Virus record (IMG/VR): IMGVR_UViG_2534681835_000014
Span: 1 to 21,025 of that record
Strand: one strand, 5' to 3'
Origin: a virus
Taxonomy: Duplodnaviria > Heunggongvirae > Uroviricota > Caudoviricetes
Length of the DNA stretch: 21,025 nt
In this document: positions 5,619 to 6,856 of the stretch, in pieces
How the letters are laid out: the number at the start of each line of letters is the position of its first letter
Numbering within the stretch: position 1 is the stretch's first letter
Translations under genes and position numbers: made by a program
Notes under the pieces: model-generated
Databases searched by the model: none
The model's input: the letters and a program-made list of their open reading frames with translations, nothing else
What the model was told of the DNA's origin: nothing

Positions 5619-6856
5619 ATGTCGGTAAAGCCATTAACCGTGACTGAAGTTAAGGGGATGAAACCACGTGAAAAGGACTATGCCGTTTATGATGGGTTCG
5701 GTTTATTGCTGAATGTGAGTAAAGCCGGTGGGAAAGTGTGGCGTTTCCGTTATAGCCATCCGATAACGAAGAAACGGCAGACATACACGATAGGACGTTT
5801 TCCTGAATTCTCACTCGCGGAAGCACGGGAAGTACGTGATGAACTTCGGCGAATGATTGCACGTGGAGTTGATCCAGTGACGGAGAAGAAAAATCGTAAA
5901 ATTGAGATGTCACTAAAAAATCTACAGACATTTGAAGCTGTTGCTAATGCATGGTTCGCTTTTAAAAAGGGATCTGAATTGCGGAAACCTACGCTGTATA
6001 ATATCGAATATGAAGTATACAAATATCTTGTTCCTTTCTTTGGTAAGTACAGTATAGAAAAAATTACAGCACCAGTAGCTATTAATGCTCTGGATGCCGT
6101 ATCCGATAAGAATGCGTTGCAAAAAAATTAATATCAAGATTAAATGAAATTATGAATTATGCTGTAAATTGTGGAGCATTGAAAGCAAATCCATTACTTA
6201 AGATAAAGACTGCATTCACAGGAAAGAAAAATAAATCATTAGCAGCACTACCTGTTGAAAGATTGCCTGAATTTCTGAGCTGGTGGGATAGTGTGCCTCA
6301 TACCTATCAAATAGCTCATAATGCACTTTTATTCCAGATATTGACAATGGTCAGGCCAGGTGAGGCGATTAAAGCAGAGTGGTCAGAGATTGATTTTGAT
6401 TCTGGCTTGTGGATTATCCCCGCGCATAAAATGAAATGCCATCGTGAACATGTTGTTCCCTTGTCATCACAGGCTATTAGTATCCTCAGAACAATGCAGG
6501 AAATAAAAAGAGGGCGTTATGTGTTTTTTTCCTCCAGAACAAAAGATGCGCCTATGGGGAGGAATACTATCAAGACCCCAATTGCTGCCAGTAAGTTCAA
6601 AGGGATTGTAACGTTACATGGTTTTCGTTCAATGTGGAGTACGCTTTTAAATGAGGAGGGATTTAACCCCGATGTAATCGAGGCTGCATTGGCGCATAAA
6701 AGTGGTGATAAAATAAGAGATATTTATAATAGAACTATTTATCTAGAACAGCGTAAGATCATGATGCAATGGGTCGGTGATTTTTTTGATGATGCGAGAA
6801 AAGGGGTAATTAATAGATCCGGTGGTATGAAAGGTTTAAGAGTAGTAAATGGTTGA
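5619..6856 (+). CDS. int: tyrosine integrase (P4-like, arm-binding N-terminus), interrupted by a 1-nt frameshift in an A7 run at 6121-6127
   Basis: Track ORFs 5619-6131 and 6152-6856 are one gene in two frames. The C-terminal part has HGFRSMWST and LAHKSGDKIRDIYNR, the His/Arg/Tyr recombinase motifs. One extra A in the run restores ...NALQKKLISRLNEIMNYAVNCG. Confidence 0.8.

Follow-up and report, generated by a model that had tools for sequence, protein, structure and literature searches.

The 21,025-nucleotide (nt) stretch of DNA analysed here, hereafter the window (positions 1 to 21,025 of IMG/VR virus record IMGVR_UViG_2534681835_000014), corresponds to the entire contig AIGJ01000030.1 of GCA_000249875.2, a 2012 draft assembly in the accession series of the DEC strain collection, of which a neighbouring accession, GCF_000249815.1, is DEC8B (PMC7693793). 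Within the window, the large terminase gene (terL) of a lambdoid prophage is interrupted by a satellite island of ~10.25 kb (5460-15694), the first gene of which (int) encodes a tyrosine integrase and, in the sequence as assembled, is a single gene split at a homopolymer (Table 1). The homopolymer is a run of seven A residues (A7) at 6121-6127, preceded by C at 6120 and followed by TT at 6128-6129 and then AA. From the ATG at 5619 the frame reads AAT GCG TTG CAA AAA AAT TAA across this tract, ending in ...NALQKN and a stop codon at 6129-6131, as the initial annotation of this DNA had described. That annotation also had the recombinase resuming in another frame from 6110, and the -1 frame was indeed found to lack stop codons from 6110 until 6854-6856, with a translation that begins ECVAKKLISRLNEIMNYAV..., contains ...KKLISRLNEIMNYAV... 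and holds the catalytic domain; gene callers begin this downstream open reading frame (ORF) at the ATG at 6152, yielding a product of 234 amino acids (aa). Pfam searches assigned PF13356 (Arm-DNA-bind_3; 9.7e-24) and the SAM-like PF14659/PF22022 to the upstream ORF, and the catalytic PF00589 (Phage_integrase; 3.7e-21) to the downstream one.

Insertion of one A into the tract in silico restored continuity, as had been predicted, and produced a 412-aa protein with an exact entry in a collection of 15 billion proteins, where it occurs on at least 1000 contigs; the corresponding 1239-bp gene (WP_000114064.1) is annotated at the equivalent position in the nearest complete genomes. Because the repaired form is an exact, known protein annotated in these genomes, the two frames represent one broken gene rather than a chance juxtaposition of ORFs. 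Like P4-type tyrosine integrases generally, the repaired protein possesses the full three-domain architecture (Arm-DNA-bind_3, SAM-like and Phage_integrase domains) and can be aligned over its full length with homologues from many Gammaproteobacteria; it differs from them in that the window contig encodes it in two frames, the continuous frame across the domain junction being broken at the A7 run. The remainder of int carries no further lesion, its DNA being identical to that of the closest complete relative, the O111:H8 strain 8E (NZ_CP077465.1), and the 3' ORF shows no secondary decay.

The distribution of the A7 allele was examined in a set of 5426 complete E. coli genomes and in the protein collection. 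A 91-mer around the tract matched 87 places in 79 of the complete genomes, none of them at 100% identity; in all 60 records among the matches listed the segment spans 92 nt and not 91, and the exact 92-mer with eight A residues (A8) is present in 63 of the 79 records. The A7 allele was consequently seen in none of the 87 complete-genome copies. In the protein collection the exact truncated 170-aa product occurs on 31 contigs, compared with the at least 1000 that encode the intact protein; the product expected from a nine-base tract (A9) was found on a single contig, and that expected from a six-base tract (A6) on none. At least three of the 31 A7 contigs belong to the 2012 draft accession series of the window, and A7 is present on at least four int haplotypes with differing backgrounds. 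Of the contigs with the window's Bro-N allele, which mark its own lineage, 26 were read; the 412-aa integrase is intact in 25 of these, the window's contig being the only one in which it is split. Further afield, 77 distant homologues (34-40% identity) maintain a continuous ORF through the split position, and in 73 of them no A run longer than five is present within the homologous 15 codons. Given that A8 dominates among near copies and that distant homologues read through, these comparisons indicate that the split is not a family feature and that the A tract is not conserved. The idea that related integrases naturally end at this position, with the downstream ORF as a separate protein, was looked at and rejected, the relatives being continuous across the site.

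These distributions also bear on whether the tract could be functional, either as an A7/A8 contingency switch for excision or as a site at which full-length integrase is made from A7 through -1 ribosomal or transcriptional slippage, with products reading ...QKNLISR... or ...QKKLISR.... A zero-frame heptamer, A AAA AAU, lies at 6122-6128 and is followed directly by TAA; it fits the X XXY YYZ slippery pattern formally, beside a stop and with -1 as the required shift, and a -1 ribosomal slip on A7 would give the full-length protein with a single K to N change. The occurrence of A7 on several haplotypes points in the same direction, and other bacteria offer documented cases in which polymerase slippage on poly(A) rescues frameshifted genes. 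Against these points, the 100 nt downstream of the heptamer contain no stimulatory RNA structure, folding more weakly (minimum free energy -8.6 kcal/mol) than shuffled sequences (mean -12.4, z = +1.32), and no Shine-Dalgarno-like stimulator (GGAG or AGGA) was found within 15 nt upstream of it. Nor is a two-frame layout conserved, since complete-genome copies, the 77 distant homologues and the other contigs of the lineage are all single-frame. Programmed -1 frameshifting was rejected on these three grounds. As to transcriptional slippage, in bacteria it becomes appreciable from runs of roughly 9 nt, and A7 is shorter. At a contingency locus, both tract lengths would be common in close isolates and the tract would be kept beyond codon need; here A7 is absent from the complete-genome copies, only one of the 26 lineage contigs is split, and A runs are short in most distant homologues. 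Off-alleles are thus rare and the tract lineage-specific, which leaves phase variation unsupported; it was rejected with the A9 product on one contig and the A6 product on none. Taken together, these observations leave the phase-variable or slippage-dependent integrase proposed in the initial annotation extremely improbable.

We then compared the consensus of the window with that of its relatives. Over 21 kb, 11 substitutions and three indels separate the window from strain 8E, and these differences were polarised against five to seven further relatives. The A8 to A7 deletion proved private to the window, as did a second one-base deletion just past the primase stop codon (Table 1): none of the 618 complete genomes that carry this segment matches the window exactly, every record among the matches listed has one additional base, and three complete records that were aligned all read AAA. 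The eight further private variants are substitutions. Six of the 10 polarised positions fall in ancestral runs of at least four bases, compared with an expected 8.5% (binomial P about 6e-5). Several private substitutions, among private positions 10756, 12310, 12329 and 18736-18739, lie within G or A runs and are shared by no relative. In the protein collection, the primase protein encoded by the window was found on AIGJ01000030.1 alone, and with no second contig carrying this allele, no independent assembly of the same strain was found. From these comparisons, the consensus quality of AIGJ01000030.1 is imperfect.

A similar pattern was apparent in other drafts. Two sister drafts of the same accession series, AIFH01000051 and AIFF01000044, show no substitutions relative to the complete O157:H7 strain 3-5-1, and differ from it by four and two one-base deletions, respectively; all of these are in homopolymers, and in both drafts they include the A8 to A7 change. 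Other, long-contig assemblies bearing A7 (L005, L006, L009 and L010) contain many homopolymer differences of plus or minus one base.

Homopolymer variation was also encountered at other loci. A second A8 run is located at 7180-7187, within the Bro-N gene; at this site O157-type islands carry A7TT, a substitution that keeps the frame, and the error-prone A7-bearing assemblies L006 and L010 give A9 and A6 there. At window position 20069, strain 8E has five G residues against six in the window and in two other complete genomes, which frameshifts the helper protease/capsid gene and has led to a 'frameshifted' label in RefSeq. Homopolymer indels, on the evidence of such alignments, also reach records designated complete.

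Based on these results, we consider the split to be probably a sequencing or assembly artefact of the draft (rough probability 0.65). This reading is favoured because the allele is private within its lineage, sister drafts exhibit homopolymer undercalls including the same one, a second private deletion is present in the contig, and homopolymers hold a disproportionate share of its private variants. The near absence of A9 and A6 products likewise suggests a strong bias towards undercalls of A8. A one-base undercall of A8 in the 2012 assembly would have created the break, and we infer that the underlying reads or strain carry A8. The real gene would then most likely be an ordinary 412-aa P4-type tyrosine integrase of a helper-embedded satellite, which together with the product of the adjacent alpA-type gene would release the island from the prophage terminase gene by excision at the 12-bp core TTGGATGGAGGG. 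Of the three explanations offered in the initial annotation, namely sequencing error, a phase-variable or slippage-dependent integrase, and real inactivation, the first is accordingly the best supported.

Several observations weigh against an artefact. The contig contains three further 8-base runs (at 324, 1903 and 7180), all called correctly, such that systematic undercalling of 8-mers in AIGJ01000030.1 was rejected, and the indel rate relative to the nearest relative is low, with two private deletions in 21 kb. The tract is also A7 in Logan contig SRR10951149, in an O121 context, and at six similar places; over 6.5 kb this contig shows no other difference from complete O121 genomes, and its other A8 run is correct. 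Since an otherwise error-free contig carries A7, genuine A7 alleles probably exist in nature. Finally, the reading rests on assembled sequence, and pyrosequencing is only the presumed platform of the DEC drafts.

In an alternative reading, replication slippage would have shortened A8 to A7 in an O111:H8-like strain, leaving a truncated integrase that retains only the arm-binding domain, with its catalytic domain untranslated. Slipped-strand mispairing makes an A8 run intrinsically a hotspot for one-base deletions, and the presence of A7 on at least four haplotypes, its standing as the sole difference in the O121-context contig, and the correct calls of the window's other 8-mers are all consistent with such an event. 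Defective prophages with small lesions are, moreover, common in enterohaemorrhagic E. coli (EHEC; PMC2669165). With the catalytic domain missing from the truncated protein, a real deletion would leave the satellite unable to excise alone; terL would stay in ATPase and nuclease halves, and both elements would be immobilised unless an intact copy of this integrase elsewhere in the genome acted in trans. Complementation of this kind is conceivable, given that strain 8E, the closest complete genome, has two places matching the int region. On the other side, the allele was seen only once in its lineage (one of the 26 contigs read) and is absent from all 87 complete-genome copies, one 2012 draft series and assemblies rich in homopolymer errors account for a strong excess of A7, and the other private variants of the contig resemble consensus errors; the undecayed 3' ORF would fit a very recent event, and would fit an artefact equally well. 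We regard a genuine private mutation as less likely than an artefact, though not negligible.

The consequence that the initial annotation had attached to real inactivation, an element locked inside the terminase gene and a crippled helper, would follow from a real deletion, because a 707-aa terminase ORF is rebuilt through excision at the 12-bp core; it is the inactivation itself that is less well supported than an artefact. The dependence of terL integrity on excision, established in silico, is also a point in favour of a genuine mutation. In that case the deletion would be an ordinary pseudogenising slip with an unusual effect, namely the immobilisation of a satellite whose excision rebuilds the helper terminase. 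A more elaborate version, in which A7 is both real and recurrent, would make the A8 run a mutational fuse: its shortening would lock the satellite in terL and turn satellite and prophage into a stable, non-packaging resident, and reversion or slippage might re-arm both, giving a heritable on/off switch. We consider this version very improbable. With an artefact remaining the preferred reading, the split integrase should serve as a caution, and is not to be read as biology without the reads; two proteins, of 170 and 234 aa, have already been deposited from several drafts by annotation pipelines.

The organization of the island and its target site is summarized in Table 1. The island is flanked by a 12-bp direct repeat, and its deletion in silico restored the terminase ORF. 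The corresponding empty junction, searched as a 120-mer, is present in 495 of the 5426 complete genomes, and the island int in 79, mostly EHEC (O157:H7, O121, O145, O111, O45, O103 and others); no close copy of the island was found in the phage collection. From the annotation of a 99.9%-identical locus in strain 8E, combined with Pfam assignments (Bro-N, D5 primase and ClpP/capsid), the gene order was resolved as int, alpA, Bro-N, Icd-like, DUF4222, D5-type primase, SSB and a ClpP-protease/capsid fusion. Portal and capsid genes follow the terL nuclease fragment, and helper and island genes are all on the + strand.

Table 1. Features of the split integrase gene, the satellite island and its target site in the window.
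Feature	Position	Strand	Description
A7 homopolymer	6121..6127	+	A8 in complete E. coli genome copies
Integrase 5' part, 170 codons	5619..6131	+	Arm-type DNA-binding domain and start of SAM-like core-binding domain; premature TAA at 6129-6131
Integrase 3' part, -1 frame	6128..6856	+	Catalytic Phage_integrase domain; matches intact 412-aa protein
attL core TTGGATGGAGGG	5448..5459	+	End of terminase ATPase-domain fragment
attR core TTGGATGGAGGG	15695..15706	+	Start of terminase nuclease-domain fragment
Helper terL 5' fragment (GpA_ATPase)	4450..5459	+	Pfam assignment; cut off by island
Helper terL 3' fragment (GpA_nuclease)	15707..16820	+	Pfam assignment; joined to 5' fragment in silico gives 707-aa ORF
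alpA-type helix-turn-helix gene	6870..7073	+	Directly 3' of int; intact; probable excisionase/regulator
Predicted attP junction of excised island			...CTTCTTGGATGGAGGG joined to TACATTTC...
Second private one-base deletion, TTAAAC to TTAAC	11285..11286	+	Just past primase stop codon

Other elements of the island were also identified. Four to five iteron-like repeats (AACTGTTCACC, some as inverted pairs) occur at 11294-11480, directly 3' of the primase gene, a putative replication origin by virtue of lying where that of a phage-inducible chromosomal island (PICI) would be expected. A 121-nt segment of the island (12319-12439) is a copy, 93% identical, of helper positions 3826-3946, immediately 5' of the DUF1441 (small-terminase-like) gene; this shared copy probably represents a cos or packaging site through which the helper could package the satellite. 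A third, weaker copy (76%) is located after the island capsid gene (14790-14901, compared with 12253-12364). The island's fusion of ClpP-type prohead protease and major capsid protein (12896-14785) is 52% identical to that of the helper (18521-20500), and could redirect or replace helper capsid assembly. In LM996461.1, the island late region (primase, SSB and capsid fusion) is located upstream of another terL 5' fragment and int, a layout that suggests tandem or rearranged composite copies of island and helper, or a misassembly.

The lesion in int may be compared with two known phenomena. It resembles the homopolymer undercalls of flow-based or nanopore drafts in that one base is missing from the longest homopolymer class in a draft-private allele, and in that sister drafts differ from a finished genome by homopolymer deletions only; it differs from them in that the other 8-mers of the contig are correct and the platform of AIGJ01000030.1 is only presumed. 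Were the deletion real, it would represent another small lesion disabling a mobility function in the pool of defective EHEC prophages, differing from these in that it would immobilise a satellite interrupting a helper packaging gene. Within that pool, the P4-like element Sp7 has an alpha-like gene disrupted by frameshifts and is still inducible (Asadulghani et al. 2009, PMC2669165).

The context holds more interest than the frameshift itself, being a helper-embedded satellite in a GpA-type terL with an integrase apparently far from the described HE-PICI clade. The satellite is of a known kind, the helper-embedded PICI (HE-PICI), for which the layout and the founding element, 11capE, were described by Tommasini, Mageeney and Williams (2023, PMC10111431). 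As in HE-PICIs, the window island is inserted in a lambdoid prophage within one of its late genes, in the same orientation, and presents the order int-alpA, Bro-N, Icd-like-DUF4222-primase-SSB and capsid. All four HE-PICI zones were found, comprising int-alpA, the Bro network, the replication primase with a candidate origin, and late genes, and the attachment sites share a 12-bp block of identity across which the 707-aa terL ORF is joined in silico. The island primase is 84% identical to that of 11capE. The island differs from described HE-PICIs in its integrase, which shares only 25% identity with that of 11capE over 384 residues; in its target, a GpA-family terL entered between the ATPase and nuclease domains; and in the split of int in the window copy. 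In the accessible portion of the HE-PICI survey the gene-A sites found are all in Terminase_1 profiles, and no GpA-family terminase site appears in the accessible part of the paper's supplements (PMC10111431). A literature search for a terL-embedded element of this kind in EHEC found no description, and the target site and integrase lineage seem to be uncatalogued. Because the integrase is only 25% identical to that of 11capE but the primase 84% identical, and the site is of the GpA family, a second integrase lineage for this lifestyle is possible. These comparisons suggest that helper embedding may have arisen in a second integrase lineage.
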